From Duganella rhizosphaerae (GTDB taxonomy: Bacteria; Pseudomonadota; Gammaproteobacteria; Burkholderiales; Burkholderiaceae_D), in the NCBI GenBank assembly GCA_040364205.1, contig BPWK01000021.1: a stretch of 24,000 bases of DNA; one strand, 5' to 3'. Shown in pieces: positions 2 through 24,000 of the stretch. Below the pieces are notes generated by a model. The model was given only the letters and a program-made list of their open reading frames with translations. It had not been told where the DNA came from and searched no databases. Positions within the stretch are counted from its first letter, which is position 1, and every line of letters begins with the position of its first letter. The position numbers and the translations under genes are program-made.

Positions 2-1288
2 GACATCCCCGCCGCCTTGCGCATGCAGGCGCCGCTGGCGATCGCCGCGCCGCATCTGTCCGAGGCGCGCCTCAAGCGCCACGTGGACGGCCTGCTGCGC
101 AAGAACAGCCACTGCGCCGGGCAGCTCAGCTTCCTGGGCGGCGGCTGCTACCAGCACCACGTGCCGGCCGTCTGCGACGAGATCAACGGCCGCAGCGAGT
201 TCGCCACCGCCTACGCCGGCGAACCGTATGACGATCATGGCCGCTTCCAGTCGCTGTTCGAGTACTGCAGCATGATGGGCGCGTTGCTGGAGATGGACGT
301 GGTCAACGTGCCGGTGTACGACGGCATGCAGGCCGCCGCCACCGCCGTGCGCATGGCCGGCCGCCACACTGGCCGCCGCCGCGTCATCGTGGCCGGCCAC
401 GTCAACCCGGACAAGCTGTCCATGATGAACACCTACGGCCGCGCCGATCTCGATTTCATCACCGCGCCGTTCGATCCGAAAACCGGCCTGCTCGACCTGG
501 CCACGGTGAAGCAGCTGCTCGATCAAGATACCGCCGCGTTGTACGTCGACATCCCATCCTTCCTCGGCACCATCGACGACGGCGCCGCGCTGGCCTCCGC
601 CGCCCACGCGGTGGGCGCGCTGTTCGTGGTCGGTGTCGATCCGGTGTCGCTGGGCGTGCTGGCGCCGCCGGCCAATTACGGCGCCGACATCGTCTGCGGC
701 GACATCCAGCCATTGGGCATGCACATGAACTACGGCGGCGGCCAGGGTGGCTTCATCGCCAGCCACGACGATCCCGCCATCGTCATGCAGTATCCATCCC
801 GGCTGTTCGGCATTGTGCCGACCAGCGTGCCGGGCGAATACGGCTTCGGCGACGTGGCCTACAGCCGCACCTCGTTTGACAAGCGCGAAAACGGCAATGA
901 ATTCGTCGGCACCGCCGCCGCGTTGTGGGGCATCACCGCCGGCGTCTATCTCGCGCTGATGGGACCACAGGGCATGACCGAACTGGCCACCGGCATCGCC
1001 CAGCGCACCGCCTACGCCAGGCAGCGCATGGCGAGCCTGCCCGGCGTGCGTGTCACGCATGCGGGCAGCTGTCACTTCCGCGAGTTCGTCGTCAACTTCG
1101 ACGACACCGGCCTGCCGGTGGCCGCCATCAACGCCGCCTTGCTGCAACAGGGCGTCTTTGGCGGCCATGACCTGAGCGCCGCCTTCCCCGCGCTGGGCCA
1201 GTCGGCCCTGTACGCCTTTTCCGAAGTCCACACGCAGGAAGACATCGACCTGCTGTGCGCAACGCTAGAGAAAGTCCTCAACCAATGA
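2..1288 (+). CDS. gcvPA: Glycine dehydrogenase (decarboxylating) subunit 1-like protein (GcvPA family); 5' end cut by window edge
   Basis: The frame is open from base 2 (DIPAALRMQAPL...), so the Met listed at 17 is internal. Length and motifs (FLGGGCYQHHVP, GADIVCGDIQPLG, GGGQGGFIA) fit the alpha subunit of split P-proteins. The stop TGA at 1286-1288 overlaps the next ATG. Confidence 0.85.
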   Translation, partial: DIPAALRMQAPLAIAAPHLSEARLKRHVDGLLRKNSHCAGQLSFLGGGCYQHHVPAVCDEINGRSEFATAYAGEPYDDHGRFQSLFEYCSMMGALLEMDVVNVPVYDGMQAAATAVRMAGRHTGRRRVIVAGHVNPDKLSMMNTYGRADLDFITAPFDPKTGLLDLATVKQLLDQDTAALYVDIPSFLGTIDDGAALASAAHAVGALFVVGVDPVSLGVLAPPANYGADIVCGDIQPLGMHMNYGGGQGGFIASHDDPAIVMQYPSRLFGIVPTSVPGEYGFGDVAYSRTSFDKRENGNEFVGTAAALWGITAGVYLALMGPQGMTELATGIAQRTAYARQRMASLPGVRVTHAGSCHFREFVVNFDDTGLPVAAINAALLQQGVFGGHDLSAAFPALGQSALYAFSEVHTQEDIDLLCATLEKVLNQ

Positions 1289-2871
1289 ACGCCATGGATA
1301 ACATCGCCCACCACCGCAAACAGCAGATGCGCCGCTACCACCAGGCGCGCTGGGACGAACCCGTCATCTTTGAACTGAGCCAGCCCGGTGAACGCGGCAT
1401 CCTGGTGCCGGAAGTGGAGCCGGACATCGTGCGCTTGGCAGGCCAGCCGCTGGCCGGGTTGCCGTCCTCCATGCTGCGCCAGCGCCCACCGGCGCTGCCG
1501 GAGATGTCGCAGAACCGCGTGCTGCGCCACTACCTGCGCCTGTCGCAGGAGACGTTGGGCGCGGACCTCAACGTGGACGTGGGGCAGGGTACCTGCACCA
1601 TGAAGTACAACCCGAAGATCAACGACCAGCTGGCGCGCCAGCCCGGCATGGCGGAGCTGCATCCGCGCCAGCCCGACAGCACCGTGCAAGGCATGCTGGA
1701 GGTGATGGACAAGCTGGAAGGCGTGCTGCGAGAAGTGTCCGGCATGGATGCCGTATCGTTGCAGGCGCGCGGCGGATCGCAAGCGATCTTCGCCAACATG
1801 GCGATGGTGCGCGCTTGGCACGAGAGCCGTGGCGAAGCAGGCCGGCGTGATGAAGTCATCACCACCATCTTCTCGCACCCGTCGGACGCCGCCTGCGCCA
1901 AGCTGGCAGGCTACAAGGTCATCACACTTTACCCGGACGCCAACGGTTATCCGGACCTGGCGGCCCTGAAGGCGGCCGTATCGCCACGCACGGCGGCGCT
2001 GGTCATCACCAACCCTGAGGACACCGGCATCTTCAACGGCCGCATTCGCGAATTCGTCGACGTGGTGCATGCCGCCGGCGGCTTGTGCGTGTACGACCAG
2101 GCCAACGCCAACGGCCTGCTGGGCATCGCCCGCGCGCGCGAGGCGGGTTTCGACCTGTGCCACTTCAACCTGCACAAGACCTTCGCCACGCCGCACGCCT
2201 GCGGCGGCCCGGCGGTTGGCGCAGTGTGCTGCACGGCGGCGCTGGCGCCGTTCCTGCCCGGCCCCCTGGTGCTGCAGAAGGATGGCCGCTACACCCTGGT
2301 GGACGGCGCTGTGCAATCGATCGGCAAGATCAGCAGCTTCACCGGCACCGCCTCCATCATGCTGCGCGCCTATGCGTGGATCATGAACCTGGGCGCCGAG
2401 GGCTTGCGCACCGTTTCCGAGATCGCGGTCCTGAACAACAACTACATGATGCACGAGCTCCTGAAGATCGACGGCATGTCCGCGCCCTACGCGGCAGGCA
2501 AGCGCCGCATCGAGCAGGTGCGCTACAGCTGGGCGGGCCTGACCGAGGCCACCGGCGTGACGTCGGAAGAAATCGGCCTGCGCGCCGCCGACTTCGGCGT
2601 GCACTACTGGACCAGCCACCATCCGTATGTAGTGCCGGAGCCGGCCACCATCGAGCCGACCGAATCCTACTCGCGCGCCGATCTCGATGAATTTATCGGC
2701 GTGATGCGCCACATCGCCGGCGAGGCGCACAGCGATCCGGATCTGGTCAAGACCGCGCCGCACAACTGTCCGGTCCACCGTGTGCAGGGCGAGATGCTGG
2801 ACGATCCGGAGCGCTGGTCCATCACCTGGCGCGCCTATCAACGCAAGCTGGGCGAGCGCGGGCTGGCATGA
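1285..2871 (+). CDS. gcvPB: Glycine dehydrogenase (decarboxylating) subunit 2-like protein (GcvPB family), divergent
   Basis: ATG at 1285 forms an ATGA overlap with the gcvPA stop, so I prefer it to the GTG at 1255 in the ORF track. Motifs are CTMKYNPK, HPRQP..TVQG and the PLP-lysine motif FNLHKTFATPH. The glycine-rich loop after the Lys is atypical (see findings). Confidence 0.85.
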   Translation: MNAMDNIAHHRKQQMRRYHQARWDEPVIFELSQPGERGILVPEVEPDIVRLAGQPLAGLPSSMLRQRPPALPEMSQNRVLRHYLRLSQETLGADLNVDVGQGTCTMKYNPKINDQLARQPGMAELHPRQPDSTVQGMLEVMDKLEGVLREVSGMDAVSLQARGGSQAIFANMAMVRAWHESRGEAGRRDEVITTIFSHPSDAACAKLAGYKVITLYPDANGYPDLAALKAAVSPRTAALVITNPEDTGIFNGRIREFVDVVHAAGGLCVYDQANANGLLGIARAREAGFDLCHFNLHKTFATPHACGGPAVGAVCCTAALAPFLPGPLVLQKDGRYTLVDGAVQSIGKISSFTGTASIMLRAYAWIMNLGAEGLRTVSEIAVLNNNYMMHELLKIDGMSAPYAAGKRRIEQVRYSWAGLTEATGVTSEEIGLRAADFGVHYWTSHHPYVVPEPATIEPTESYSRADLDEFIGVMRHIAGEAHSDPDLVKTAPHNCPVHRVQGEMLDDPERWSITWRAYQRKLGERGLA

Positions 2872-4001
2872 AGATCGGGCTGGTGGTCAATCCCTGGGCC
2901 GGCATCGGCGGCCCGGCCGGCCTCAAAGGCTCGGACGGCGCCGACAGCGTGCAGGCCGCGCTAGCGTCCGGCGTCCTGCCGCAGGTGGCCGCACGCATGG
3001 CCGTCATGTTCGCGGCCTGTGGCGGCGCGGCGCACGCCATCAGCTGGTACACGGCGGACGGCGACATGGGCCTGCACGCATTGCACGCGGCGGGCCTGCA
3101 GGCCAGCGCCGTCGTGCCGGTTGCGTCGCCGTCGCAGGCGACGGATACGCGCCGCGCCAGCTGCATCCTGGCCGGCATGGGGATAGACCTGCTGCTGTTT
3201 GCCGGCGGCGACGGCACCGCGCGCGATGTGCTGGATGGCCTGCGCGACGCCGGCGTGATGGCTACCTTGCCGGTGCTGGGCGTGCCTGCCGGCGTGAAGA
3301 TGCAATCGGCGGTATTCGCCAACCATCCAACCGCCGCAGGGCTATTGCTGCGCCAGTTTCAGCAGAACGGCCTGGCCATCTGCAGCGATGCCGAAGTGAT
3401 GGACCTCGACGAAGAAGCGCTGCGGCGCAACCAGATCGTGCCGCGCCTGTACGGCTACCTGCAACTGCCGCTGGCGCCGTCGCTGACGCAAGGCGGCAAG
3501 TCGCGTCATGCCAGCGGCAGCGGGGCGCAGCGCATGGCTATCGCCCGCAGTTTTGCGGAAGGCATGGAGGCGCGTTCGCTGTATCTGATCGGCCCCGGCT
3601 CGACCACGCAGGCCTTGCTGTCGCTGCTGGGCGTGGACGGCGCCTTGCTGGGTGTGGACGCGGTGCTGGGCGACGGCACGCTGCTGGCGCGCGACGCATC
3701 GCGTCGTGAGCTGGAAAACCTGGCCGGAGACTGGCAATCGCCGCCGCACCTGGTGCTGTCGCCGATTGGCGGACAAGGACTGGTGCTGGGACGCGGCAAC
3801 CAGCAGATTTCACCGAGCCTGCTGCGCGCAGCCGGCAGGCGTGGGCTGCATGTGCTGGCGCCGCAGGACAAGCTGCTGTCGCTGCACGGCGGCGTGCTGC
3901 GCATCGACAGCGGCGACGCGGAACTCGATGCGCAATTCAATGGGTATTTGCCGGTGACGACCGGCTACCGGGAGCAGACCATGTGGCCGGTCTCGGTGTA
4001 G
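2868..4001 (+). CDS. ATP-NAD kinase-fold protein (COG3199 / AcoX-like), function unknown
   Basis: ATG at 2868 overlaps the gcvPB stop (ATGA). N-terminus is MKIGLVVNPWAGIGG, and it carries the NAD-kinase/diacylglycerol-kinase signature LLLFAGGDGTARDV. At 377 aa it matches the AcoX-type family in size. Confidence 0.7.
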   Translation: MKIGLVVNPWAGIGGPAGLKGSDGADSVQAALASGVLPQVAARMAVMFAACGGAAHAISWYTADGDMGLHALHAAGLQASAVVPVASPSQATDTRRASCILAGMGIDLLLFAGGDGTARDVLDGLRDAGVMATLPVLGVPAGVKMQSAVFANHPTAAGLLLRQFQQNGLAICSDAEVMDLDEEALRRNQIVPRLYGYLQLPLAPSLTQGGKSRHASGSGAQRMAIARSFAEGMEARSLYLIGPGSTTQALLSLLGVDGALLGVDAVLGDGTLLARDASRRELENLAGDWQSPPHLVLSPIGGQGLVLGRGNQQISPSLLRAAGRRGLHVLAPQDKLLSLHGGVLRIDSGDAELDAQFNGYLPVTTGYREQTMWPVSV

Positions 4002-4052
4002 CGGCAACAAAGTAAGACAACAAACATAACGATAACTATCTGGAGATTCCAA

Positions 4053-6563
4053 ATGAGACAAAAAACCGGGTTGACCCTTTCGGTCGCCACCCTGGCCCAG
4101 CTGGCGGCCATGCACGGCGCGCAGGCGCAAACAGCGCCCGACGCGGCGGGCGCCACCGACAAGGGCACGCCCATGCAGGAGGTGGTCGTCACCGGCACCA
4201 CCGCCAAAAATCGCACCAAGCTGGAATCCTCGGTCGCCATTACGACCGTGGACCTGGCCAAGTTGGAGAAGCTCGCGCCGCATAGCCTGGCCGATTCGCT
4301 GCAACAGGTTCCCGGCCTGTGGGTGGAAGCATCCGGCGGCGAGGTGTCTAACAACGTCTCGCCGCGCGGCTTGAGCGGCGGCGCCGCGTTCCAGTTCATC
4401 AGCCTCCAGGAAGACGGCCTGCCGGTGATCTACGACGGTGAACTGGTGGACGTTCTGATGCGCGAGGACGTCACCATCAAGCGCTTCGAGGCGATCCGCG
4501 GCGGCACCTCGGCCATCCTGTCGACCAACGGCCCGGCGGCCATCGTCAACTTCATCAGCCAGAAGGGCACGCAAACGCCGCAGGGCGAGGCCAAGGTCAC
4601 CATCGGCGACTACGGCATGGTGCGTACCGAGGGCGTGTATTCGGGCCCGATCGACGACGACTGGACCTACGCGGCCGGCGGCTACTACCGCGAAGGCAAG
4701 GGCGTGCGCCCGATCGGCATCACCGCCGACCATGGCGGCCAGCTTCGCGTGAACCTGACGCGCAAGCTGGAGCGCGGCGAACTGACGCTGTCGGCCAAGT
4801 ACGTCAACGACCACAACACCTTCTACCTGCCTATCCCGCTGACCAATCCCGGCAACCCGACCGGCGTGCCGGGCGTGAATCCGCATTACGGCTCGCTGGA
4901 TGGTCCGGACCTGGCGCACATCACCAACCAGACCACCAATGGTCCCGTGACCACCGACCTCCATACCGGCTTCCACGTGCTGGCCAAGGTGATCGGCGCG
5001 GACCTGCAGCATGAACTGGGCGGCGACTGGTCGTTCCGCAACAACGCGCGCTACACGCGATACGACGTGTCGCCGCAGTCGGTGTTCAATGGTCCCAACA
5101 GCTATCTGGTCCGCGCCAGCAACCGCCTCGATCCGGCACAGTCCAGCGACGTCGCCGCGCTGCTGAAACGCTTCGGCGGCACCGCAAAGCTGGCCTACGC
5201 CGGCAGCGGTCAACTGATCAACGACCCATCCACCCTGAATGGCAACGGCTTCACCACCGACGCAGTGGCCGAGACACGCTTCCGTTCACTGGGCCATTTC
5301 ATTGACAAGCTGTCGGTGACGAAGGAGAACGACAAGAACAGCTTCACCGCCGGCATCCTGTTCGCCGCACAAAAACTGTACGACGATTCCGACTATGGCG
5401 CCCGCATCATCACCGACGTGCGCGATCAACCGAGCCGGCTCGATATCGTCGCCGTCGACGCCAACAACAAGATCCTAGGCTACCTGTCGGACAAGGGCGT
5501 GCTGCGCAACGGCTACTTCTACGAACGCCACAAAGGCGACATGAAGTCGATGTCCTACTTCGTCAACGACGAATGGAAGGTCAGTAACAACCTGCGCCTC
5601 GACGCCGGCGTGCGCTACGAAGTGGCCCGCTACGACGTACAGGACGAAGGCGTGCTGGCGGCCGGCGACGATCTGCCAGGCGACAACCTGACCGAGGGCG
5701 CCATCATCCCCGGCGCCTTCAATGCGGACGGCAGCGACAAGGACAACATCATCGCCAACAACTACATGCGCCGTGCCGGCACCGGCGTGTGGACTCGCAA
5801 GCAGAAGACGATCAAGGAAGCCTCCTACACGGCGGGTTTCAACTACGCCTTCAACGACCACGTGGCCACGTATGGCCGCTACGCCAGCGGCACCAACATG
5901 CCGACCCTGTACAGCGGCGACAGCTTCGTCGACGGCGCCAGCCGGCTCAGTTTCACCGAGGCGGGCGTGCGCTACATTTCGCCGTTCTGGACCACGTCGG
6001 CCACGGTATTCCACACCAAGTTCGACAACCTGTCCTTCGGCGAAACCAACCAGGCCACGGGCGACTTCCGCCAGGTGTTCGTCAAGACGCTGTCGACCGG
6101 CATTGAGCTGGAGGGCATCATCAATCCGTTCAAGCAGTTCTCGCTGGAGTACGTGGCTACCTTGCAGAAGGCCACCATCAACGGCATCGACCCGAACGCG
6201 GAGGAGGCCAAGCAGAACGGCAACCAGGTGATGCGTACGCCGAACACACAGGTGCGCCTGATCCCGACGCTGCATTTCGGCTTCGGCGATGTGTTCCTGG
6301 TCTACAGCCATATCGGCAAACGCTTCGCCGACTTTGAAAACGCGCTGGCGCTGCCGGCCTACCATGTGATCGACATGGGAGCGGAGATCAAGATCGACAA
6401 GAAGTGGAAGCTGAACCTGAAAGTGAACAACGTGACCAACTCGATCGGCCTGACCGAAGGGAATCCACGTAGCGGCTTTAACCAAAGCTCGAACGGTAGC
6501 CTGTTCTACGCACGGCCTATCCTGGGGCGCAACGCCACGGCCTCGCTGTCTTACCGCTTCTGA
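4053..6563 (+). CDS. TonB-dependent outer-membrane receptor
   Basis: Signal peptide ends AMHGAQAQ. Plug-region motif is MQEVVVTGT...ESSVAITTV. The rest of the 836-aa protein is beta-barrel-like and rich in Y/G/N/T. It ends in the aromatic motif LSYRF. A GGAGA Shine-Dalgarno lies 7 nt upstream of the ATG. Confidence 0.9.
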   Translation: MRQKTGLTLSVATLAQLAAMHGAQAQTAPDAAGATDKGTPMQEVVVTGTTAKNRTKLESSVAITTVDLAKLEKLAPHSLADSLQQVPGLWVEASGGEVSNNVSPRGLSGGAAFQFISLQEDGLPVIYDGELVDVLMREDVTIKRFEAIRGGTSAILSTNGPAAIVNFISQKGTQTPQGEAKVTIGDYGMVRTEGVYSGPIDDDWTYAAGGYYREGKGVRPIGITADHGGQLRVNLTRKLERGELTLSAKYVNDHNTFYLPIPLTNPGNPTGVPGVNPHYGSLDGPDLAHITNQTTNGPVTTDLHTGFHVLAKVIGADLQHELGGDWSFRNNARYTRYDVSPQSVFNGPNSYLVRASNRLDPAQSSDVAALLKRFGGTAKLAYAGSGQLINDPSTLNGNGFTTDAVAETRFRSLGHFIDKLSVTKENDKNSFTAGILFAAQKLYDDSDYGARIITDVRDQPSRLDIVAVDANNKILGYLSDKGVLRNGYFYERHKGDMKSMSYFVNDEWKVSNNLRLDAGVRYEVARYDVQDEGVLAAGDDLPGDNLTEGAIIPGAFNADGSDKDNIIANNYMRRAGTGVWTRKQKTIKEASYTAGFNYAFNDHVATYGRYASGTNMPTLYSGDSFVDGASRLSFTEAGVRYISPFWTTSATVFHTKFDNLSFGETNQATGDFRQVFVKTLSTGIELEGIINPFKQFSLEYVATLQKATINGIDPNAEEAKQNGNQVMRTPNTQVRLIPTLHFGFGDVFLVYSHIGKRFADFENALALPAYHVIDMGAEIKIDKKWKLNLKVNNVTNSIGLTEGNPRSGFNQSSNGSLFYARPILGRNATASLSYRF

Positions 6564-6571
6564 TGCATCAG

Positions 6572-13824
<7,253 letters not shown>

Positions 13825-14604
13825 TTATGCCGATCCGGCCAGGCCGCCGCCGTCCACCACCAGCGCGTCGCCGGTGACGAAGGAAGAACGATCCGATGCG
13901 AGGAACAGCACCGCCTGCGCGATCTCGCGTGGCTGGCCCACGCGCATCAGCGGCCGTCCTGCGCCGGCCGTCACCAGCGCGGCTTCCTCAAGCCCCAGCT
14001 GCTGCGCTTCGTTGCGCAGCATCGGCGTATCGGTGTCGCCGGGGCAGACGCAGTTGACGCGGATGTTCTGCGGGCCGTGGTCCACCGCCATCGCCTTGGT
14101 CAGTATCACCACCGCGCCCTTGGAGGCGCAGTAGGACACGGCATCCTTGCCGCCCACCAGCCCCCAGCCGGAAGCGGTGTTGATGATGCTGCCGCCGCCT
14201 TGCTGCTGCATCACCGGCACGGCGTGTTTGCACATCAGGAAAATCGACTTGACGTTGACCGCCATGACCTGGTCCCATTCCTGCTCGGTGGTGTCGATGA
14301 CGTTGGCGCGGCGCGTGATGCCGGCGTTGTTGAACAGGACGTCGAGCCGGCCGTAGCGCGACACGGCCGCCGCCACCGCCGCCGCGCAATCGGCGGCCAC
14401 GGCGACGTCGGTGCGGATGAAGGAGGCGCGCGCGCCGGCCTCGATCAGCGCCGCCACCGCCAGTTCGCCCGCCGCGCCGTCGCGGTCGGCGATCAGCACG
14501 GTGGCGCCTTCGCGCGCAAACAATTCCGCCGTGGCGCGGCCGATGCCGGATGCGCCTCCCGTAATCAACGCCACCTTGCCTGCCAGTTCGCCTTGCTGAT
14601 GCAT
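13825..14604 (-). CDS. Short-chain dehydrogenase/reductase (classical SDR), first gene of the ebg operon
   Basis: Has the TGGASGIGRA cofactor motif, NNAG, and a catalytic Ser...YCASK triad. A GGAGA Shine-Dalgarno lies 7 nt upstream of the ATG. Its stop is 3 nt before the ebgA start. Confidence 0.88.
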   Translation of the reverse strand: MHQQGELAGKVALITGGASGIGRATAELFAREGATVLIADRDGAAGELAVAALIEAGARASFIRTDVAVAADCAAAVAAAVSRYGRLDVLFNNAGITRRANVIDTTEQEWDQVMAVNVKSIFLMCKHAVPVMQQQGGGSIINTASGWGLVGGKDAVSYCASKGAVVILTKAMAVDHGPQNIRVNCVCPGDTDTPMLRNEAQQLGLEEAALVTAGAGRPLMRVGQPREIAQAVLFLASDRSSFVTGDALVVDGGGLAGSA

Positions 14605-14754: not shown

Positions 14755-15744
14755 TCAGGCGGCGTTTTCGGCCGGACGGTCGACGATCACGCAGTCCCGG
14801 CCGGCGCGCTTGGCGGCGTACAGGCAGGCGTCGGCGGCGGCCAGCATGGTGGCGGCGTCAAACAGGCGGTCCTTGTCGTAGGTGGCCACGCCGATGCTCA
14901 TCGTCACGTGCGGGCGGTTGGCGGCCGGCGCGTGCGTGATCTCCAGCGCGGCGATGCGGGCGCGGATCGTTTCGGCGAGCTGGGCCGCCTGCTCCGGGCC
15001 GGTGTCCGGCAGCACGGCGGCGAACTCCTCGCCGCCGTAGCGCGCGGCCAGGTCGGCCGGGCGTTGCAGCATGGCGGCGAAGGCTTCCGCCACCAGGGTC
15101 AGGCAGGCGTCGCCCTGCTGGTGGCCGAAGTGGTCGTTATAGGCCTTGAAGGAATCGATGTCCATCAGCAGCAGCGACAGCTGGCCGTGGTTGCGCTGTG
15201 CCCGGCGCAGCTCGCGGTCCAGCGCGACGTCGAAGTGGCGGCGGTTGGCGATGCCGGTCAAGCCATCCACGTACGATTGCGCGCGCAGCGCCTCGGCCTG
15301 GCCGCGCAGCTGGCGCTCGCGGCCGACGGTGGTGCTGATGTCGCTCACCTCGATCAGGCAGTAGCGCTCCTTGCCCTCGGTGAAGGGCGTGACCGACACC
15401 GCCTGCTCGACCCGTTCGCCGCCCCAGGTGCCGGTCGGGTACAGCGGGAAGGGCGAGCGGTTCAGCGCCGGCGACAGCTGCTGCGGCAGGTTGCTCTGCA
15501 TCGCGCTCTGCACCGCCTGCTCCAGCCGCTGGCCGCGCAGTTCCGGGAATTGTTCGAACAGGTCGCTGCCCAGCACGCGGTGGGCCGACAGGCCGGAATG
15601 GCTGGCCAGCCACTGGTTCCACATGACGATGCGGCCGCTGGCGTCGAGCACCATCAGGCCCAGGTTGGCCAGCCCGAGCACGCGCCCGGACAGGTGGGCG
15701 TGGCTGCCGGCGGCAGGCGGGGTGGCGGTGGTGTTTGCTTGCAT
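14755..15744 (-). CDS. PAS-GGDEF diguanylate cyclase (predicted active, with I-site)
   Basis: The N-terminal PAS-like region is LMVLDASGRIVMWNQW. The GGDEF domain has LTGIANRR, an intact GGEEF and RPAD exactly 5 residues upstream of it (an RxxD inhibitory site). The Shine-Dalgarno is AGGAAAA. Confidence 0.9.
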   Translation of the reverse strand: MQANTTATPPAAGSHAHLSGRVLGLANLGLMVLDASGRIVMWNQWLASHSGLSAHRVLGSDLFEQFPELRGQRLEQAVQSAMQSNLPQQLSPALNRSPFPLYPTGTWGGERVEQAVSVTPFTEGKERYCLIEVSDISTTVGRERQLRGQAEALRAQSYVDGLTGIANRRHFDVALDRELRRAQRNHGQLSLLLMDIDSFKAYNDHFGHQQGDACLTLVAEAFAAMLQRPADLAARYGGEEFAAVLPDTGPEQAAQLAETIRARIAALEITHAPAANRPHVTMSIGVATYDKDRLFDAATMLAAADACLYAAKRAGRDCVIVDRPAENAA

Positions 15745-15804: not shown

Positions 15805-15832
15805 ATTATAAGCGCAGCCGCGCCGCTGTCAC
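15805..15832 (-). promoter_or_regulatory. Sigma70-like promoter for the PAS-GGDEF gene
   Basis: On the minus strand there is GTGACA (15832-15827), a 16-nt spacer, then a perfect TATAAT (15810-15805). It sits about 60 nt upstream of the ATG at 15744, just after the stop of the upstream kinase gene. Confidence 0.55.
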
Positions 15833-15837
15833 TCTTT

Positions 15838-17630
<1,793 letters not shown>

Positions 17631-17634
<4 letters not shown>

Positions 17635-18593
17635 GGCTGCCCCGCCGGTGTGCTGTTGAGCGTATTGAGGAACTGGATGATGTCGGCCTTGTCCTGCCGG
17701 CTGCCGCTGCGCCCCAGCTGGAACTTGAACATGACGTCGATCGCGTCCTCCAGCGTGGCGGCCGAGCCGTCGTGGAAATACGGGGCGCTGCGCGTCACGT
17801 TGCGCAGGCTGGGCACCTTGAACACGTGCAGGTCGTCGGGATTGTGGGTGACGGCGTAGCGGCCGCGGTCGGCCTCGTTGGCGCCGCCGCGCTGGGCGAA
17901 GTAGTCGCCCATGACGCCGAATTTCTGGAACATATTGCCGCCGACGTTGACGCCCTGGTGGCAGGCGGCGCAGCCGAAGCGCTTGAACTTGGCGTAGCCG
18001 GCCTGTTCCGCCGCCGTGATGGCGTTGCGGTCGCCGCGCAGGTACTGGTCGAAGCGGGCGTTGGGGGTGATCAGCGTGCGTTCGTAGCTGACGATGGCGT
18101 GGCGCAGGTTGGCGATGGTCAGGCCGTCGCGGTAGGCTTGCGCGAAGCCGTCGCGGTAGGCGGCGTCGCCGGCCAGCCTGGCCAGCACGCTCTCCCACGA
18201 CGATCCCATCTCGACCGGATTGCGGATCACCATGTCGAGCTGGGCTTCCAGCGTGTCGGCGCGGCCGTCCCAGAATTGCTTGAAGTTGAGCGCGGCGTTG
18301 AGCACGGTGGGCGCGTTGACGGCGCCCGGCTTGCCCAGGAAGCCGAGCGATTTGGCCCGCTGGTCGGCGCCGCCGCGCGCGACGTTGTGGCAGCTGCTGC
18401 AGGAGACGCTGCTGTTGCCCGACAGCCGGACGTCGTTGAACAGGCGCCGGCCCAGCGCGGCCTTGGCCGGGTCCTGGTGCAAGCTCAGCGGCACCGGCGA
18501 GATCGGCTCGCTGGCCGGCAGGGCCGGCGCGGCGGCCAGGCCGGTTGCCAGGCACAGCAGGGCGAGGCGGGGGGAAGTGGTGAAGCCACGCAT
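17631..18593 (-). CDS. Periplasmic di-haem cytochrome c peroxidase (CCP/MauG family)
   Basis: Signal peptide is LALLCLATGLAAAPALPA. It has two CXXCH motifs (CSSCH, CAACH), the inter-haem Trp motif QFWDGRA, NPVEM, LRN..APYFHDG, and DVMFKFQLG carrying the likely Met ligand. The Shine-Dalgarno is GGAGAA. Confidence 0.9.
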
Positions 18594-18611: not shown

Positions 18612-19490
<879 letters not shown>

Positions 19491-19491
19491 G

Positions 19492-21648
19492 TCAGGCTCC
19501 GGCGGCCATGGCCAGCTGCGGCGCCGCTGGTTCCTGCAGGCCGTGCAGCTGCCAGTAGTGGCGGAAGGCGGCGTCGATATTGTTGCGCAAGGTGCGGTTG
19601 TCCCAGGGCTTGGTGTAGAAGCGGTACAGGGCGCCGCGGTTGATCGATTCCATGATCGTGTTCAGGTCGGTGTAGCCGGACAGGATGATGCGGAAGGTGT
19701 CCGGGTACATCTGCTTGATCTTGTCGAGCAGGTCGGTGCCGCTCATTTCCTCCATGCGCTGGTCGCACAGCACCAGTTGCACCGGATATTGCGCCAGCAG
19801 CGCGAAGGCCTGGGCCGCGCCGTTGGCGGTCAGCACGCGGTAGCCGTCCTGGCGCAGCAGGCGCTGCAGCGAGGTCAGCATGTGCGGCTCGTCGTCGATG
19901 ATCAGCAGCGTGCGCTCGGGGGCGTCGCCAGCGTCGTTCGGCAGGCGCAGGCGGACGTCGTCGCGCAGCATTTGCTCCAGCTGCGCCGCCGGCAGCGGCC
20001 GGCTGAAGAAATAGCCCTGGATCTGGTCGCAGCGGTGGCGCCCCAGGTAGGCCAGCTGGGCCGCGGTCTCCACGCCTTCGGCCACCACCTCCAGCTTCAG
20101 GCTGTGCGCCATGGCGATGATGGCGTCCACCACGGCGGCGTCGTCGGGACTGCTGGTCACTTCGCGGATGAAGGCGATGTCGATTTTCAGCGTGTCGACC
20201 GGGAAGCGCTTCAGGTAGGCCAGGCTGGAATAGCCGGTGCCGAAGTCGTCGATGGCGATGTGCACGCCGGTCGCGCGCAGCGCGCTCAGGGTGGCGGCGG
20301 TGCGGCCGATGTCGTCCATCATCGCGCTCTCGGTCACCTCCAACGACAGCAGGCCGGGATCGATGCCGTGGCGGGCGATGGCCTCGGCCACGGTCTGCTC
20401 CAGCCTGGTGTCGGCGAACTGGCGGCTGGCGACGTTGACGGCGATCGGCAGCGGGCCGTTGGCGTGCGGCGCCCAGGCGGCGATCTGGCGGCAGGCCTGG
20501 TCGATGGCCCAGGCGCCGACCGGCACGATCAGGCCGCTGCGCTCGAGCAGCGGGATGAACTCGGCCGGCGACACCAGGCCGTGGCCGGGCCGGTTCCAGC
20601 GCAGCAGCGCCTCGGCGCCGACCATGCGGCCGGTGCCGATCTGCACCTTGGGCTGGTAATACAGTTCGAACTCGCCGCGTTCGCTGGCCTGGCGCAGCGC
20701 GTGCTCCAGCTGGTAGCGCGTCTGCGCCTGCAGGTCCATGGCGTCGGTGAAGTAGCAGCAGTGGTCGCGCCCTTCCTGCTTAGCCTGGTGCAGGGCGATG
20801 TCGGCGTAGCGCAGCAGCGTGGCGACGTCGTCGATGTCGGACGGACAGGCGGCGATGCCGATGCTGACCGTCATCGTGGTCTGGCCGCCGGGCAGGTCGA
20901 ACGGCTGCTGCAGCGCCTCGCGGATCTGGTCGGCGACCGCGCCGGCCTGTGGCAGCTGGGCCGGCAGCAGCAGCGCGAATTCGTCGTTGCCCAGGCGGCC
21001 GATGGTGGCGGGCGGCGGCGCCAGCTGGCCCAGCCGTTTGGCGAACTGGCACAGCAGGGCGTCGCCGGCGGCGTGGCCCTGGCTGTCGTTGATGGCGGTG
21101 AAGCCGTCCAGGTCGACCAGCAGCAGGGCGCTGGCGCGCGGCCAGGCCGCCGCCAGCTGCGGCACCATGGTCTGCGCGAACAGCTGGCGGTTCGGCAGGC
21201 CGGTCAGGTGGTCGTGGCCGGCCATGCGCGGGCCGTAGTTGCGGCTGCCGGTGTAGAGCAGCCGCACTTCCAGCATATTGCGGATGCGCGACAGCAGCTC
21301 GTCGTAGTCATACGGCTTGCAGATGAAGTCCTTGGCGCCGGCCTTGAGCGCGCGCAGCTTGTAGTCCGGCTCGGCGGACACCACCAGCACCGGCAGGTAT
21401 TGCTCGGCCTCGATCTGGCGCAGGCTGTCGAGCACTTCGAAGCCATCCATGTCCGGCATGTTCAGGTCCAGCACGATCAGGTCGTAGTGGTGCAGGCGGT
21501 GCATGGCGGCCACCGCCGGCGCGTCGCTGGTGCAGCTGACGCTGGTGTAGCCGGCGCTGGCCAGCACCTGTTCGAGCAGCGCGAGATTGAGCGGCTGGTC
21601 GTCGACGATCAGGATCTTGGCGGCATGCAGGGGGGTGATCGTGTTCAT
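19492..21648 (-). CDS. Dual-receiver c-di-GMP phosphodiesterase: REC - degenerate GGDEF (GNDEF) - EAL - REC
   Basis: The true start is MNTITPLH at 21648 (ATGA overlap with the upstream REC gene). REC1 has DDQ, LDLNMPDMDG and CKP. The GGDEF domain carries RLGNDEF. The EAL domain has EALLRW, EVTES, DDFGTGYSS, KIDIAF, EGVET and QGYFFSRP. REC2 has IDDEP, LCDQRMEEMSG and YTKPWD. Confidence 0.9.
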   Translation of the reverse strand: MNTITPLHAAKILIVDDQPLNLALLEQVLASAGYTSVSCTSDAPAVAAMHRLHHYDLIVLDLNMPDMDGFEVLDSLRQIEAEQYLPVLVVSAEPDYKLRALKAGAKDFICKPYDYDELLSRIRNMLEVRLLYTGSRNYGPRMAGHDHLTGLPNRQLFAQTMVPQLAAAWPRASALLLVDLDGFTAINDSQGHAAGDALLCQFAKRLGQLAPPPATIGRLGNDEFALLLPAQLPQAGAVADQIREALQQPFDLPGGQTTMTVSIGIAACPSDIDDVATLLRYADIALHQAKQEGRDHCCYFTDAMDLQAQTRYQLEHALRQASERGEFELYYQPKVQIGTGRMVGAEALLRWNRPGHGLVSPAEFIPLLERSGLIVPVGAWAIDQACRQIAAWAPHANGPLPIAVNVASRQFADTRLEQTVAEAIARHGIDPGLLSLEVTESAMMDDIGRTAATLSALRATGVHIAIDDFGTGYSSLAYLKRFPVDTLKIDIAFIREVTSSPDDAAVVDAIIAMAHSLKLEVVAEGVETAAQLAYLGRHRCDQIQGYFFSRPLPAAQLEQMLRDDVRLRLPNDAGDAPERTLLIIDDEPHMLTSLQRLLRQDGYRVLTANGAAQAFALLAQYPVQLVLCDQRMEEMSGTDLLDKIKQMYPDTFRIILSGYTDLNTIMESINRGALYRFYTKPWDNRTLRNNIDAAFRHYWQLHGLQEPAAPQLAMAAGA

Positions 21649-22049
21649 GGACGTGGGCCTCCGGTGAAGGACGCCGCCGCCTGGCCGCAGGCCAGGCTGA
21701 TGGTGTCCAGTAACAGTTGATCGTTGACGGGCTTGCTCAGATAGGCCAGCGGCAGGTGCTGTTGCGCCTGCGCCTGTTCGGCCGGGCTGGGCTGGCCGGT
21801 GAGGATGATGACGCCCACCTCGGGCGCCCGCGCGGCCAGCCTGGCCTGCACCTCCAGCCCGGACAGGCCAGGCATGTGCACGTCCAGCACCACGCAGCAG
21901 GGGCGGCCGCCGTCCAGCGCGACCAGGAAGTCGGCGCCGCCGGCGTAGGCCTGGGCCGGGATGCCGGCCGAGCGCAGCAGGCGCAGCAGCGCGCGCCGTA
22001 TCGCGTCGTCGTCGTCTACTACAGCCACCCAGGGAAGTGAGGTATCCAT
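21645..22049 (-). CDS. Stand-alone receiver (REC-only) response regulator
   Basis: I prefer the ATG at 22049 (MDTSLPWVAVVDDDD) to the TTG at 22100. It has the acidic pocket DDDD, the phospho-acceptor in VVLDVHMPG, then ILTG and SKP. There is no output domain. Confidence 0.8.
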   Translation of the reverse strand: MDTSLPWVAVVDDDDAIRRALLRLLRSAGIPAQAYAGGADFLVALDGGRPCCVVLDVHMPGLSGLEVQARLAARAPEVGVIILTGQPSPAEQAQAQQHLPLAYLSKPVNDQLLLDTISLACGQAAASFTGGPRP

Positions 22050-22056
22050 GACTGCA

Positions 22057-22109
22057 CAATAGCCCGGCGGCAACGGCGCGGCTATTGGACCTTGGGCCAA
22101 TACCGCCGG
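22057..22109 (-). promoter_or_regulatory. Intercistronic element with nested and competing inverted repeats sharing a CCAATA/TATTGG motif
   Basis: Stem A is CAATAGCC 22057-22064 with GGCTATTG 22080-22087. Stem B is TATTGG 22083-22088 with CCAATA 22097-22102. Stem C is CCGGCGG 22064-22070 with CCGCCGG 22103-22109. Together they fill almost the whole 60-nt gap between the FixJ-like stop and the REC start. Confidence 0.45.
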
Positions 22110-22724
22110 CTAGCCGTGGCGCGCGCGGTCGACCAGGCGCACCAGCGCCGTCACCGAGCGCACCTGCATTTTCGCCATCACGCGCGCGCGGTGCACCTTG
22201 ACGGTCTTTTCCACCGTGCCCAGCGCGGCCGCCACCTGCTTGTTGAGCAAGCCTTCGATGATCAGGTGCAGCACCTCGGTCTCGCGCGGGGTGAGTGTGG
22301 CCAGCCGCTGGCGGATCTCGTCGAGCTCGGCGCCCGCGCTGCGCGCCTGGCGGTGCTGGGCCAGCGCCGCGTGGATGGCGGCGATCAGCCGCTCGTCGTC
22401 GACCGGCTTGGTCAGGAAGTCGGCCGCGCCCAGCTTCATCGCGCGCACGCCGGTGTCGATGTCGCCGTGGCCGGTCAGGAAGATGATGGGCAGGGTGCTG
22501 GCGCGCCCGGCCAGCGCCTGTTGCAGCGCCAGGCCGTCCATCTCCGGCATCGACAGGTCCAGCACCAGGCAGCCGTCGGCGCCGTCCGCAGGCAGCGCGT
22601 CGAGGAAGGCGCGGGCGCTGGCGTAGGGCTGCACCGCGAAGCCGGCCGCGCCCAGCAGCCGCGCCAGCGCCTTCAGCACGGCCGGCTGGTCGTCGACCAG
22701 GAACACCCGCTGTTCGCCGCTCAT
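22110..22724 (-). CDS. FixJ/NarL-family response regulator (REC + LuxR-type HTH)
   Basis: The true start is MSGEQRVFLVDDQP at 22724 (ATGA overlap with the kinase stop). It has LDLSMPEMDG, FLTGHG and TKPV, plus the C-terminal HTH LTPRETEVLHLIIEGLLNKQVAAALGTVEKTVKVHRARVMAKM. Confidence 0.9.
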   Translation of the reverse strand: MSGEQRVFLVDDQPAVLKALARLLGAAGFAVQPYASARAFLDALPADGADGCLVLDLSMPEMDGLALQQALAGRASTLPIIFLTGHGDIDTGVRAMKLGAADFLTKPVDDERLIAAIHAALAQHRQARSAGAELDEIRQRLATLTPRETEVLHLIIEGLLNKQVAAALGTVEKTVKVHRARVMAKMQVRSVTALVRLVDRARHG

Positions 22725-24000
22725 GGCGCGCCTTCGGCCAGCGGCAGGCGCAGGTGGAAGCTGGCGCCGCCGTCGGGGTTGTTGTGCGCCCACAGCGTGC
22801 CGTGGTGGGCGGTGGCGATGCTGCGGCAGATCGACAGCCCCAGCCCCATGCCGCGCGCCTTGGTGGTGTAGAAGGGATCGAAGATGCGCGCCAGGATGTC
22901 GGGCGCGATGCCGGCGCCGCGGTCGATCACGCTGAACTGCACGGCGTCGCCGTCGCGCGCGCAGCGCAGCACGATCACGCGGTCCGCGTGCGCCGGCGCG
23001 GCCTGGGCGTCGCAGGCGTTCATCAGCAGGTTGATCAGCACCTGTTGCAGCTGCACGGGATCGGCGCTGAGCGTCAGCGCTTGCTCGTCCAGTTCGGTGC
23101 GCACGGTCAGGCCGTGGTGGATCAGGTCGTTGCGCACCAGGCCGATCACGTCGTCCACCAGCCCGGCGGCGGCCAGCCGCTGGCGCGGCATGTCCTGCTT
23201 GCCGAACAGGCGCCGCAGGCGCTGGATGATGTCGCCGGCGCGCTTGTCCTCGTCGACGATGTCGTCCAGGATCTCGGCCACCTCGGCCAGGTCGGGCGCC
23301 GGCTGCGCCAGGAAGCGGCGGGCCGCCTGGGCGTTGCTGAGGATGGCCGTCAGCGGCTGGTTCAGTTCGTGCGCCAGCGCGCCCGACAGCTCGCCCAGCA
23401 TGGCCACCCGCGCCAGGTGGGTGACTTCCTTCTGCTTTTGCTGCAGCTCCAGCTCGGCCTGTTTGCGCTGGGTGATGTCGAGCGACACGCCGCGCACCCG
23501 CAGCGGCCGGCCCTGCCCGTCGTGCTCGATGCTGCCGTGCGAGCCTATCCAGCGCTGCTCGCCGCCGGCCAGCAGCACGCGGTATTCCATGTCGTAGCGC
23601 GGCGCGCCGTGCTGGGCGTGGCTGAGGGTGCGCTGGACGGCGGCGCGGTCGTCCGGGTGCACCTTGGCCAGCAGGTCGGCCAGCGTCAGCTGTTGCTCCG
23701 GCGCGAAGCCGAACAGCGCGCGCCACTGCTCCGAGCACCAGATCAGCTGGTCGCTCAGCTCGCGGGTCCAGATGCCCAGGTGGGCGGCGTTGGCCGCCAG
23801 CGCCAGGCGCTGCTCGCTTTCGCGCATGTCGGCGCGGGCTTGCCGCACGCTGAGCGCGGCCTCGCGCAGGGCCTGGCCCAGCTGCCTGGCTTCGCGGAAG
23901 TGCAGCGGCGGCAGCGCCAGCTCGGCGCCGGCGCCGACCGCGCGCGCCGGCGCCACCAGCGCCTGCACCGAACGGGCGATGCGCCCGCCCAGCAGCCACG
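22721..24000 (-). CDS. PAS-containing sensor histidine kinase (FixL-like); 5' end probably beyond window edge
   Basis: It has a PAS domain (LGIWTRELSDQLIWCSEQW...RWIGSHGS...VSLDITQRK), H-box LAHELNQPLTAI, N-box LLMNACDA, G1 DRGAGI and G2 GMGLGLSI. The frame stays open upstream of the GTG at 23968 to the window end (..WLLGGRIARSV). Confidence 0.85.
   Translation of the reverse strand, partial: WLLGGRIARSVQALVAPARAVGAGAELALPPLHFREARQLGQALREAALSVRQARADMRESEQRLALAANAAHLGIWTRELSDQLIWCSEQWRALFGFAPEQQLTLADLLAKVHPDDRAAVQRTLSHAQHGAPRYDMEYRVLLAGGEQRWIGSHGSIEHDGQGRPLRVRGVSLDITQRKQAELELQQKQKEVTHLARVAMLGELSGALAHELNQPLTAILSNAQAARRFLAQPAPDLAEVAEILDDIVDEDKRAGDIIQRLRRLFGKQDMPRQRLAAAGLVDDVIGLVRNDLIHHGLTVRTELDEQALTLSADPVQLQQVLINLLMNACDAQAAPAHADRVIVLRCARDGDAVQFSVIDRGAGIAPDILARIFDPFYTTKARGMGLGLSICRSIATAHHGTLWAHNNPDGGASFHLRLPLAEGAP

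Follow-up and report, generated by a model that had tools for sequence, protein, structure and literature searches.

Near-obligate pairing of a di-haem cytochrome c peroxidase lineage lacking the distal histidine with DAHL sensor proteins: a candidate two-protein periplasmic receptor in Duganella rhizosphaerae

A stretch of 24,000 nucleotides from Duganella rhizosphaerae (contig BPWK01000021.1 of assembly GCA_040364205.1; G+C content 67%), which was analysed at its full length and is called here the window, carries on its minus strand, at 17631..18593, the gene of a di-haem cytochrome c peroxidase of 320 amino acids, assigned from its open reading frame and translation, from Pfam and from matches to PDB entries. 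This protein belongs to a lineage of peroxidases that lack the distal histidine of the peroxidatic haem, and the genes of this lineage are followed, almost without exception, by a gene for a sensor protein with a DAHL domain. We propose, giving it somewhat better than an even chance, that the peroxidase is a constitutively open haem protein and acts as the input subunit of a two-protein periplasmic receptor formed with the DAHL kinase, probably a receptor for peroxide. A His-less peroxidatic site is already known from the biochemistry of YhjA, and so are periplasmic partner proteins of sensor kinases and haem-based sensing as such; what appears to be new is the near-obligate coupling of the peroxidase to DAHL, which spans many phyla.

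The first-pass annotation of the window, made from the letters alone, had given the correct coordinates of the gene, to which we add the minus strand, and every motif that it listed was found again in the 320-residue product. The protein reaches 193.4 bits with the Pfam model PF03150 CCP_MauG (cut-off 25.6, E 4.1e-57), and its matches to bacterial cytochrome c peroxidases (bCCPs) in the PDB range from E 5e-75 to 4e-60. Two sets of homologues, 85 loci from species-representative genomes and look-ups and 91 peroxidases sampled independently via their DAHL neighbour, give together 176 linked proteins on which conservation could be judged. The binding motif of the peroxidatic (P) haem, CSSCH, occupies residues 65-69 (18387..18401, minus) with the invariant His69 as proximal ligand, and that of the electron-transfer (E) haem, CAACH, residues 208-212 (17958..17972, minus) with the proximal ligand His212, present in 85/85 and 91/91 proteins. 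Met288 (17730..17732, minus), in DVMFKFQLG, falls into the column of the E-haem ligand Met275 of Pseudomonas aeruginosa and is Met in 176/176, which at the sequence level predicts ligation. The catalytic and electron-transfer core (18210..18272, minus) consists of Trp108 in FWDGRA, Gln118 in LEAQ and Glu128 in NPVEM, all invariant in the clade alignment A1 and kept in 85/85, 84/85 and 82/85 of the loci, respectively; Asn93 of the Ca site lies in VNAPTV. Taking the linked peroxidases together, Gln118, Glu128 and Asn93 are kept in more than 96%, and His69, Trp108, His212 and Met288 are essentially invariant. Among the 120 closest homologues FWNGR is frequent instead of FWDGR. By hydropathy the N-terminus, a single hydrophobic segment at residues 10-28 followed by ALPA-SEP, resembles a cleavable signal peptide.

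The distal-ligand loop, delimited by alignments and column counts, reads S82-L-G-F85-L-G87 (18333..18350, minus), and in it Phe85 (18339-18341) stands for His71 and Gly87 for Trp73 of the P. aeruginosa enzyme. With both HMMER and MAFFT, Phe85 shares its column with the His of Nitrosomonas europaea (SIGHKW), S. oneidensis (SIGHHW) and Geobacter MacA (SIGHGW) as well as with P. aeruginosa His71. The alignment with P. aeruginosa, N. europaea and MauG that the first-pass annotation had proposed thus puts Phe85, not His, at the distal-ligand position, and the P. aeruginosa loop that it quoted, SVGHGWQKGPRNSPTV, is identical to residues 68-83 of 1eb7. Since the loop has the same length as in the classical enzymes, the change from His71 to Phe85 is a substitution and not a deletion. 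In classical bCCPs Trp73 stacks on Gly72 of the other monomer and steadies the His-bearing loop in the active form (PMC10094543). With the distal His replaced by Phe85 and the switch Trp by Gly87, both parts of the reductive-activation switch are absent, and the P haem should therefore be permanently accessible.

It had also been stated that no His occurs anywhere between CSSCH and FWDGRA, and this is correct: the seven histidines of the protein are at 39, 69, 165, 212, 250, 256 and 274, with none at residues 70-164. By our arithmetic, however, a run of 37 residues without His has a chance of about 0.47 at a His frequency of 2%, which is unremarkable alone, so that the significance of the absence rests on the homologous column and on its conservation. 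Distal-column counts were taken from MAFFT alignments anchored on PDB sequences. The 120 closest database homologues (62-94% identity) have Phe in 86 cases, Leu in 22, Val in 7, His in one and other residues in 4; the 85 loci have Phe 44, Ile 21, Val 13, Leu 4 and Met, Ala and Thr once each; the 91 independently sampled peroxidases have Phe 30, Ile 26, Val 18, Leu 7, Arg 4, Ala 2, Trp 1 and Pro 1. Phe, Ile, Val or Leu thus fills the column in about 93% of the 176 linked proteins and His in none, and the switch-Trp column is Gly in 76/85 and 82/91. Across the clade alignment none of the other loop positions conserves a His, Met, Lys, Cys or Tyr that might stand in as ligand. When the best-scoring representatives of 50%-identity clusters were considered, 150 of them and all above the N. 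europaea enzyme, a single one (P0224) had His at the distal column; 23 of the 150 are tri-haem proteins. The rarity of His loss that had been implied is therefore gone, as 149 of these 150 nearest representatives lack the distal His, and on this comparison the His-less P site is the family-typical state of a large branch and not a peculiarity of one gene.

Several variations of the loop should be recorded here. A histidine elsewhere in the loop occurs in 49 of the 120 close homologues and 31 of the 85 loci, often three residues before the hydrophobic residue (R-x-H-S-x-G-F; examples are P0006, P0010, P0013 and P0016, and L004, L007 and L009), and the window protein has none. Arg occupies the distal column in four DAHL-linked metagenome peroxidases, L111 and L143 among them. 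A peroxidase from an Azospirillum thermophilum plasmid (L091, 3920-4927) is N. europaea-like, with 73% identity, and reads SIGDHWQKG, with Asp in the His column and the His displaced by one position.

The hydrophobic character of the distal column, which is not what free drift would leave, invites a different explanation, namely that the protein is a co-sensor of a diatomic gas or of another haem ligand (NO, CO, O2, sulfide), in which a hydrophobic residue caps a five-coordinate haem as in cytochromes c'. Such a function would parallel the control of cyclic di-guanosine monophosphate (c-di-GMP) by H-NOX/HnoK or NosP/NahK; cytochrome c' and H-NOX provide the precedent, and in the window, as in a few of the other loci, c-di-GMP enzymes are encoded beside the module. 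We hold this to be quite unlikely. A pure gas sensor would have no need of the conserved Gln118/Glu128 acid-base pair that serves in peroxide cleavage, the loop with residue 85 may sit away from the haem in the modelled open conformation, and the c-di-GMP neighbours are not conserved across the family.

The second line of evidence is the genomic neighbourhood. In all five genomes that were looked up (Duganella, Pseudomonas, Polaromonas, Ramlibacter and a soil metagenome) a DAHL gene follows immediately downstream on the same strand, and the other neighbours differ. Starting from the peroxidase, 79 of 80 species-level loci proved to have a DAHL neighbour; at least six phyla are represented, the taxa including Beta-, Gamma- and Alphaproteobacteria, Myxococcota, Binatia, Acidobacteriota, Verrucomicrobiota and Cyanobacteria; the Pfam DAHL model matches 77 of the 77 partners scanned, and the estimated spacing of the two genes is mostly -4, -1 or -13 nt. 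Starting from the other side, a hand-designed degenerate DNA pattern derived from an invariant DAHL motif gave 120 metagenome loci, all confirmed with the hidden Markov model, and a peroxidase stands directly upstream in 105 of the 107 that have at least 400 nt of upstream sequence. A tblastn search of plasmids with the DAHL domain gave no match. The output of the DAHL partners is a kinase in 75/77, GGDEF in one and SpoIIE in one, with REC and PAS additions, and the gene after the DAHL kinase varies as well (in about half of the loci it encodes a second kinase core, in others REC, GGDEF/EAL or something unrelated). As output domain and flanking genes vary and DAHL stays, the constant element is the peroxidase together with DAHL. 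Plant- and soil-associated Pseudomonas, Comamonas, Duganella and Massilia commonly carry this module.

Peroxidases of other types served as controls. No DAHL neighbour was found for the classical His/Trp enzymes on plasmids of Methylocella, Rhizobium etli and Pannonibacter (L092-L094), for L091, L088 and L087, for the tri-haem proteins L090 and L096, or for P0224, the sole His-bearing representative. Among six plasmid peroxidases picked blind to the distal column, only that of Vitreoscilla pVF1 has a DAHL neighbour (downstream, with a 4-nt overlap, and annotated as such); it has Ile at the distal column and is the only di-haem protein of the six without His in or next to that column. The two tri-haem controls lack the distal His and yet have no DAHL neighbour. 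With the His-less tri-haem proteins unpaired and the His-bearing enzymes unpaired too, the His-less state is necessary for the pairing but does not suffice for it.

These counts bear directly on the most ordinary explanation, that we deal with a constitutively active periplasmic detoxifying peroxidase, a two-haem counterpart of YhjA, whose only tie to the kinase is a common transcript or control by it, the kinase using its DAHL domain to sense something else. None of the catalytic and electron-transfer residues is lost, YhjA as the nearest characterised relative is a genuine peroxidase, and the top structural match of DAHL binds small ligands directly, all of which suits such an enzyme. An unrelated DAHL ligand would, however, predict varied neighbours, and the upstream gene is nearly always the peroxidase, even where the output is GGDEF or SpoIIE. 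In the loci inspected no DNA-binding regulator is conserved in the module and no electron-donor gene is consistently adjacent, and it is not usual for the target of a two-component system to be encoded upstream of the kinase in translational coupling with it. Taken together, we find it rather unlikely that detoxification is the whole story. For the sensing role which the first-pass annotation had suggested for the open haem, the almost constant presence of a DAHL sensor kinase next to the peroxidase is strong and independent support.

In the window the DAHL kinase is a transmembrane histidine kinase of 598 residues (15838..17634, minus; Pfam DAHL, PF19443, at 3.5e-47, HisKA, HATPase_c), 95% identical to 'DAHL domain-containing protein [unclassified Duganella]'. 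Its DAHL domain (residues 39-262; 16849..17520, minus), delimited by transmembrane helices, conservation and the model, lies between transmembrane helices at about 12-38 and at 263-285, and should thus be periplasmic like the peroxidase, as judged by hydropathy only. In 77-85 partners compared, which come from many phyla, D76, K121, N129, S130 and H213 do not vary, His213 (16996-16998) being conserved at 99-100%, and Tyr75 and Trp60 are, like His213, near-invariant; the five invariant polar residues could line a pocket for a ligand or be the place where the peroxidase docks. A DAHL profile found no match among PDB sequences at E up to 10. An AlphaFold model built on a deep alignment of database homologues (predicted local distance difference test score, pLDDT, 93.5; predicted template-modelling score, pTM, 0.87) consists of seven helices and matches the McpS ligand-binding domain (LBD; 2yfa/2yfb, template-modelling score, TM, 0.62-0.73), PilJ and, with probability 1.0, the TorS sensor (TM about 0.44), including TorS-TorT complexes. 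The model thus assigns DAHL to the helical bimodular (HBM-type) sensor fold class. McpS binds small ligands directly, while TorS, whose sensor is HBM-like, senses via the separate periplasmic protein TorT (PMC8050422).

The conserved His213 raises two further thoughts. One is that the intramolecular His switch of the classical enzymes has turned intermolecular, the vacant distal site being filled or gated in trans by the sensor, e.g. by DAHL His213, so that peroxide or another ligand arriving at the haem displaces the contact and switches the kinase; we regard this as a long shot, although, if true, it would mean widespread two-protein periplasmic haem receptors derived from the peroxidase fold and would assign a protein ligand to the DAHL family. 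The other is that the lost His is compensated by another residue, the protein's own or its partner's, at the sixth site, leaving the P haem closed at rest and in need of activation. His213 and the extra loop His of many homologues could be cited for it, but the window protein has no His at 70-164, the clade has no conserved ligand in the loop, and YhjA, whose loop is of this type, does without a distal ligand from the protein. Compensation of this kind appears highly improbable to us.

YhjA is indeed the top match of the window peroxidase both by sequence and by structure (PDB 9qdt, E 5e-75, TMq 0.80), and 9qdt has Val at the distal-His column and Gly at the switch-Trp column. The P haem of YhjA is reported to lack a distal ligand from the protein and to have His/hydroxide coordination, to bind its substrate while oxidised and to be active without prior reduction; its sixth ligand is a labile hydroxide (PMC10301912). 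The first-pass annotation had predicted a permanently open, five-coordinate P haem. The open half of this prediction is in line with our data, the distal His and the switch Trp being absent and an accessible P haem being expected; the five-coordinate half is not guaranteed, in view of the hydroxide in YhjA. An AlphaFold model of the peroxidase, built without haems (pLDDT 76.8; switch-loop region about 60-77), resembles the active form more than the resting one in the cases of MacA (4aam/4aan, TM 0.75-0.76, E about 5e-20, against 4aal, TM 0.67, 1e-14), of the P. aeruginosa enzyme (2vhd, TM 0.76, against 1eb7, TM 0.69) and of the Paracoccus pantotrophus enzyme (2c1v, TM 0.74, against 2c1u, TM 0.62). 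For all three enzymes solved in both states the model is thus nearer the active form, which, as indirect evidence from a haem-free model, is consistent with a permanently open site.

The same annotation had likened the protein to MauG and BthA, and this kinship was not borne out. The E-haem ligand column holds Met288, in agreement with the Met of all bCCPs, where Methylobacterium MauG has Tyr; the NCBIfam model of MauG, TIGR03791, gives 162 bits against a cut-off of 443.85, and that of MbnH 178 against 363; matches to MauG in the PDB stand at E of about 1e-26, compared with 1e-60 to 1e-75 for bCCPs. The entries 6nx0 and 6v59, which we take to be BthA, match at E 1e-10 over residues 29-76 only (48 residues). 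No mau or mbn genes are present in the window. Four larger homologues (P0166, P0218, P0232 and P0258; about 1080-1190 residues, four CXXCH motifs) have Tyr, the MauG-type ligand, at the Met-ligand column.

A MauG-like action was weighed as well: H2O2 would bring the two haems to a high-valent state which oxidises a protein, most plausibly DAHL, and the peroxide signal would be relayed by covalent or redox modification. Genuine MauG, represented here by the protein of a Methylobacterium plasmid, has in common with the window protein the Phe of the distal column and the conserved Trp, Gln and Glu, the Pfam superfamily CCP_MauG is common to both proteins, and the tight pairing with one protein, in which His213, Tyr75 and Trp60 are near-invariant, recalls MauG and preMADH. 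Yet the Tyr that stabilises the bis-Fe(IV) state of MauG is Met in 176/176 linked proteins, the scores are far under the MauG and MbnH cut-offs, and the protein is much nearer the canonical peroxidases, which makes such a relay very unlikely in our opinion.

We also asked the phylogeny of the linked peroxidases. A neighbour-joining tree with 200 bootstraps was computed for 46 sampled linked proteins together with classical, tri-haem and unlinked references. In it 40 of the 46, the query and the Vitreoscilla protein included, form a clade without any reference, and classical and tri-haem enzymes each form a clade of their own; 155/200 bootstraps recover a reference-free clade in which the query stands with no fewer than 30 linked members, which is moderate support. 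Strict monophyly of the linked peroxidases had to be rejected, since the smallest clade with all 46 includes classical and tri-haem references in 200/200 bootstraps: the six outliers prevent the whole linked set from being monophyletic. L111 and L143, the Arg-bearing proteins in the tree, pair with each other and fall outside the main linked clade. A single origin of the linkage seems plausible from these sequences.

From the observations above, the receptor that we propose may be imagined as follows. The peroxidase would react with H2O2, or bind another small haem ligand, without pre-reduction; its altered haem or conformational state would be read by the helical bimodular DAHL domain, as TorS reads TorT; the state of the DAHL domain would set the activity of the kinase; and in the window the signal would pass on to receiver-containing c-di-GMP enzymes and to a LuxR-type regulator. 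An open P haem suits a sensor because the response to an oxidant need not wait for an electron donor. As Gln/Glu, Trp and Met are kept in more than 96% of the linked proteins, peroxide chemistry is arguably still under selection, and the peroxide-cleaving residues, being retained, suggest that the signal is peroxide.

A number of points weigh against this proposal. Which way information flows cannot be read from gene linkage by itself, and that the two proteins touch is something that we infer. The retained catalytic residues would fit a plain detoxifying enzyme equally well; McpS, which comes nearest to DAHL in structure, is a direct receptor of small molecules, and the invariant polar residues of DAHL could form a pocket independent of the peroxidase. 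The likeness of the model to open forms could be a bias of the predictor, as the model is free of haem and its switch loop has the moderate pLDDT given above. The signal could also be NO or the redox state instead of peroxide, and the linked peroxidases are not strictly monophyletic, 40 of 46 being in the reference-free clade. There are also exceptions to the pairing: in L087 a divergent cyanobacterial peroxidase is followed by a binding-protein gene, two DAHL loci have no peroxidase (L122, where DAHL comes after a transporter gene, and probably L127), and Massilia sp. Root351 has an orphan DAHL kinase 8 kb from its single peroxidase.

In the window the peroxidase is the fifth in a run of seven minus-strand signalling genes extending from 22724 to 14755. 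The run begins with a REC-LuxR(GerE) response regulator of 204 residues (22110..22724, minus; from Pfam, start mapped) and a stand-alone REC protein of 151 residues (21645..22100, minus; from its open reading frame and sequence), whose equivalents in Duganella and Massilia have 131 and 128 residues. A REC-GGDEF-EAL-REC protein follows, of 718 residues counted from Met138 of its open reading frame (19492..21648, minus; Pfam), a candidate output for c-di-GMP turnover found also in the Duganella and Massilia clusters, and then a soluble kinase with HisKA and HATPase domains (292 residues; 18612..19490, minus; Pfam), present in Duganella and not conserved elsewhere. The stop codon of this kinase precedes the ATG of the peroxidase (17631..18593) by 18 nt, with GGAG between them, and the TGA of the peroxidase overlaps the ATG of the DAHL kinase (15838..17634) as ATGA. 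The last gene encodes a PAS-GGDEF protein of diguanylate cyclase type (329 residues; 14755..15744, minus; Pfam). Between the stop of the DAHL kinase and the start of this gene there is a sigma-70-like site at 15805-15832 (minus; GTGACA, 16 nt, TATAAT; 11 of 12 positions), a consensus match only, which overlaps a weak terminator-like hairpin; to judge from it, the PAS-GGDEF gene may have a promoter of its own. The rest of the window, 17-14604, is unrelated and holds genes of housekeeping and carbohydrate metabolism: glycine-cleavage P-protein subunits, NAD kinase, a TonB-dependent receptor, a YgjK-type glucosidase, an amino-acid permease, a LacZ-type beta-galactosidase and a short-chain dehydrogenase.

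The related cluster of Massilia sp. Root351 (L218/L219, on one contig) has two DAHL kinases and a single peroxidase, in the order DAHL histidine kinase, dCache-PAS histidine kinase, REC-LuxR, REC, REC-GGDEF-EAL-REC, peroxidase, DAHL histidine kinase. The window matches this order from REC-LuxR onward and ends, at 24000, within the open reading frame that precedes REC-LuxR, so a second DAHL kinase past its edge is possible. A second kinase with a core close to that of the DAHL kinase accompanies the module also in other arrangements: it is soluble and 5' of the peroxidase in the window and in Duganella, and in about half of the loci, mostly of Pseudomonas (L012-L062), a kinase-core protein comes after the DAHL kinase. 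Those of the latter that were read start receiver-like, without a match to the REC probe. Apart from these, the database is rich in receiver-kinase proteins of 465-480 residues whose cores are about 60% identical. In Pseudomonas sp. 2FE (L004, 4745-6696) a CCP_MauG fragment of 73 residues and then a kinase with a Tll0287-like domain lie just upstream of the peroxidase-DAHL pair. The Tll0287-like family being one of PAS-like sensors with c-haem, the neighbourhood may hold another kinase linked to haem.

We searched the literature in full text, with incomplete coverage, and found no description of a peroxidase-DAHL or peroxidase-kinase module. A network paper on the CCP_MauG superfamily does not mention kinases, a Geobacter paper that came up repeatedly merely lists a peroxidase in a transcriptome, the full-text search for the DAHL domain returned none, the 'Dahl' matches being names of authors, and NCBIfam has no model for either partner as such.

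Bacterial di-haem peroxidases have so far been treated as detoxifying enzymes, or in the case of MauG as a maturation factor of a protein, and DAHL is a Pfam sensor family without a known ligand. The association of about 98% in both directions, seen in many phyla, suggests signal input as the work of an entire lineage of 'peroxidases', and it provides a testable candidate for the input of DAHL kinases. If confirmed, it would mean that Gram-negative bacteria sense oxidants or haem ligands in the periplasm, ahead of cytoplasmic sensors such as OxyR. In D. rhizosphaerae the signal, if our proposal is true, would be wired to c-di-GMP and hence probably to decisions on biofilm and motility; for the plant- and soil-associated carriers of the module the oxidative bursts of hosts and competitors matter. 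The clade is also a natural collection of two-haem peroxidases without the whole switch, His and Trp, which can be useful for the enzymology of reductive activation.

Among known enzymes, the window protein has in common with the classical bCCPs (P. aeruginosa CcpA, P. pantotrophus, Geobacter MacA, N. gonorrhoeae) the fold, the size, two c-haems, the His/Met E haem, Trp, Gln/Glu and the Asn of the Ca site; the latter differ in having His71 and Trp73 in place of Phe85 and Gly87, form a separate clade and have no DAHL neighbour in the cases examined. The N. europaea enzyme (1iqc; 44% identity, TM 0.78) is constitutively active, and the window protein would likewise be expected, from its sequence, to be active without pre-reduction; the N. 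europaea protein, however, keeps His and Trp (SIGHKW) and is open through conformation, whereas here the residues themselves are gone. The tri-haem quinol peroxidases YhjA, QPO and PerC have, like the window protein, a hydrophobic distal column and Gly at the switch Trp, and they conserve Trp, Gln, Glu, Met and the Asn of the Ca site. The window protein differs from them in having two CXXCH motifs in 320 residues and no N-terminal third-haem domain, its alignment to 9qdt beginning at residue 124 of the latter; a membrane anchor for quinol oxidation is not apparent in it, the N-terminus being signal-peptide-like by hydropathy. These tri-haem relatives form a separate clade, and the two examined have no DAHL neighbour. 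With MauG, MbnH and BthA, di-haem enzymes that modify proteins or peptides, the window peroxidase shares the Pfam superfamily.

On the side of the receptor, the McpS-LBD of the HBM family, the top structural match of the DAHL model, has in common with it two stacked four-helix bundles and shows 13-15% identity; McpS binds organic acids directly and without a partner enzyme, whereas DAHL is paired with a peroxidase. Haem proteins beside a histidine kinase are known from H-NOX/HnoK and NosP/NahK, and c-di-GMP enzymes are in the cluster of the window too. Those systems are cytoplasmic, with b-type haem and unrelated folds, and the pair described here is, by its sequence features, periplasmic, with c-type haems and a peroxidase fold whose catalytic residues are intact. 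In TorT-TorS, LuxP-LuxQ and ChvE-VirA a periplasmic partner protein works with a sensor kinase, and the adjacency of the two genes is seen here as well (79/80, 5/5 and 105/107). The likeness is closest to TorT-TorS, where a separately encoded periplasmic protein stands beside a kinase whose sensor is a helical bimodular bundle, as the hydropathy and the model suggest for DAHL. It has its limits in the TM of about 0.44 to TorS, below that to McpS, in an interaction that is observed for TorT-TorS and would be expected for our pair, and in the nature of the partner, which is here a redox-active di-haem enzyme and not a solute-binding protein.

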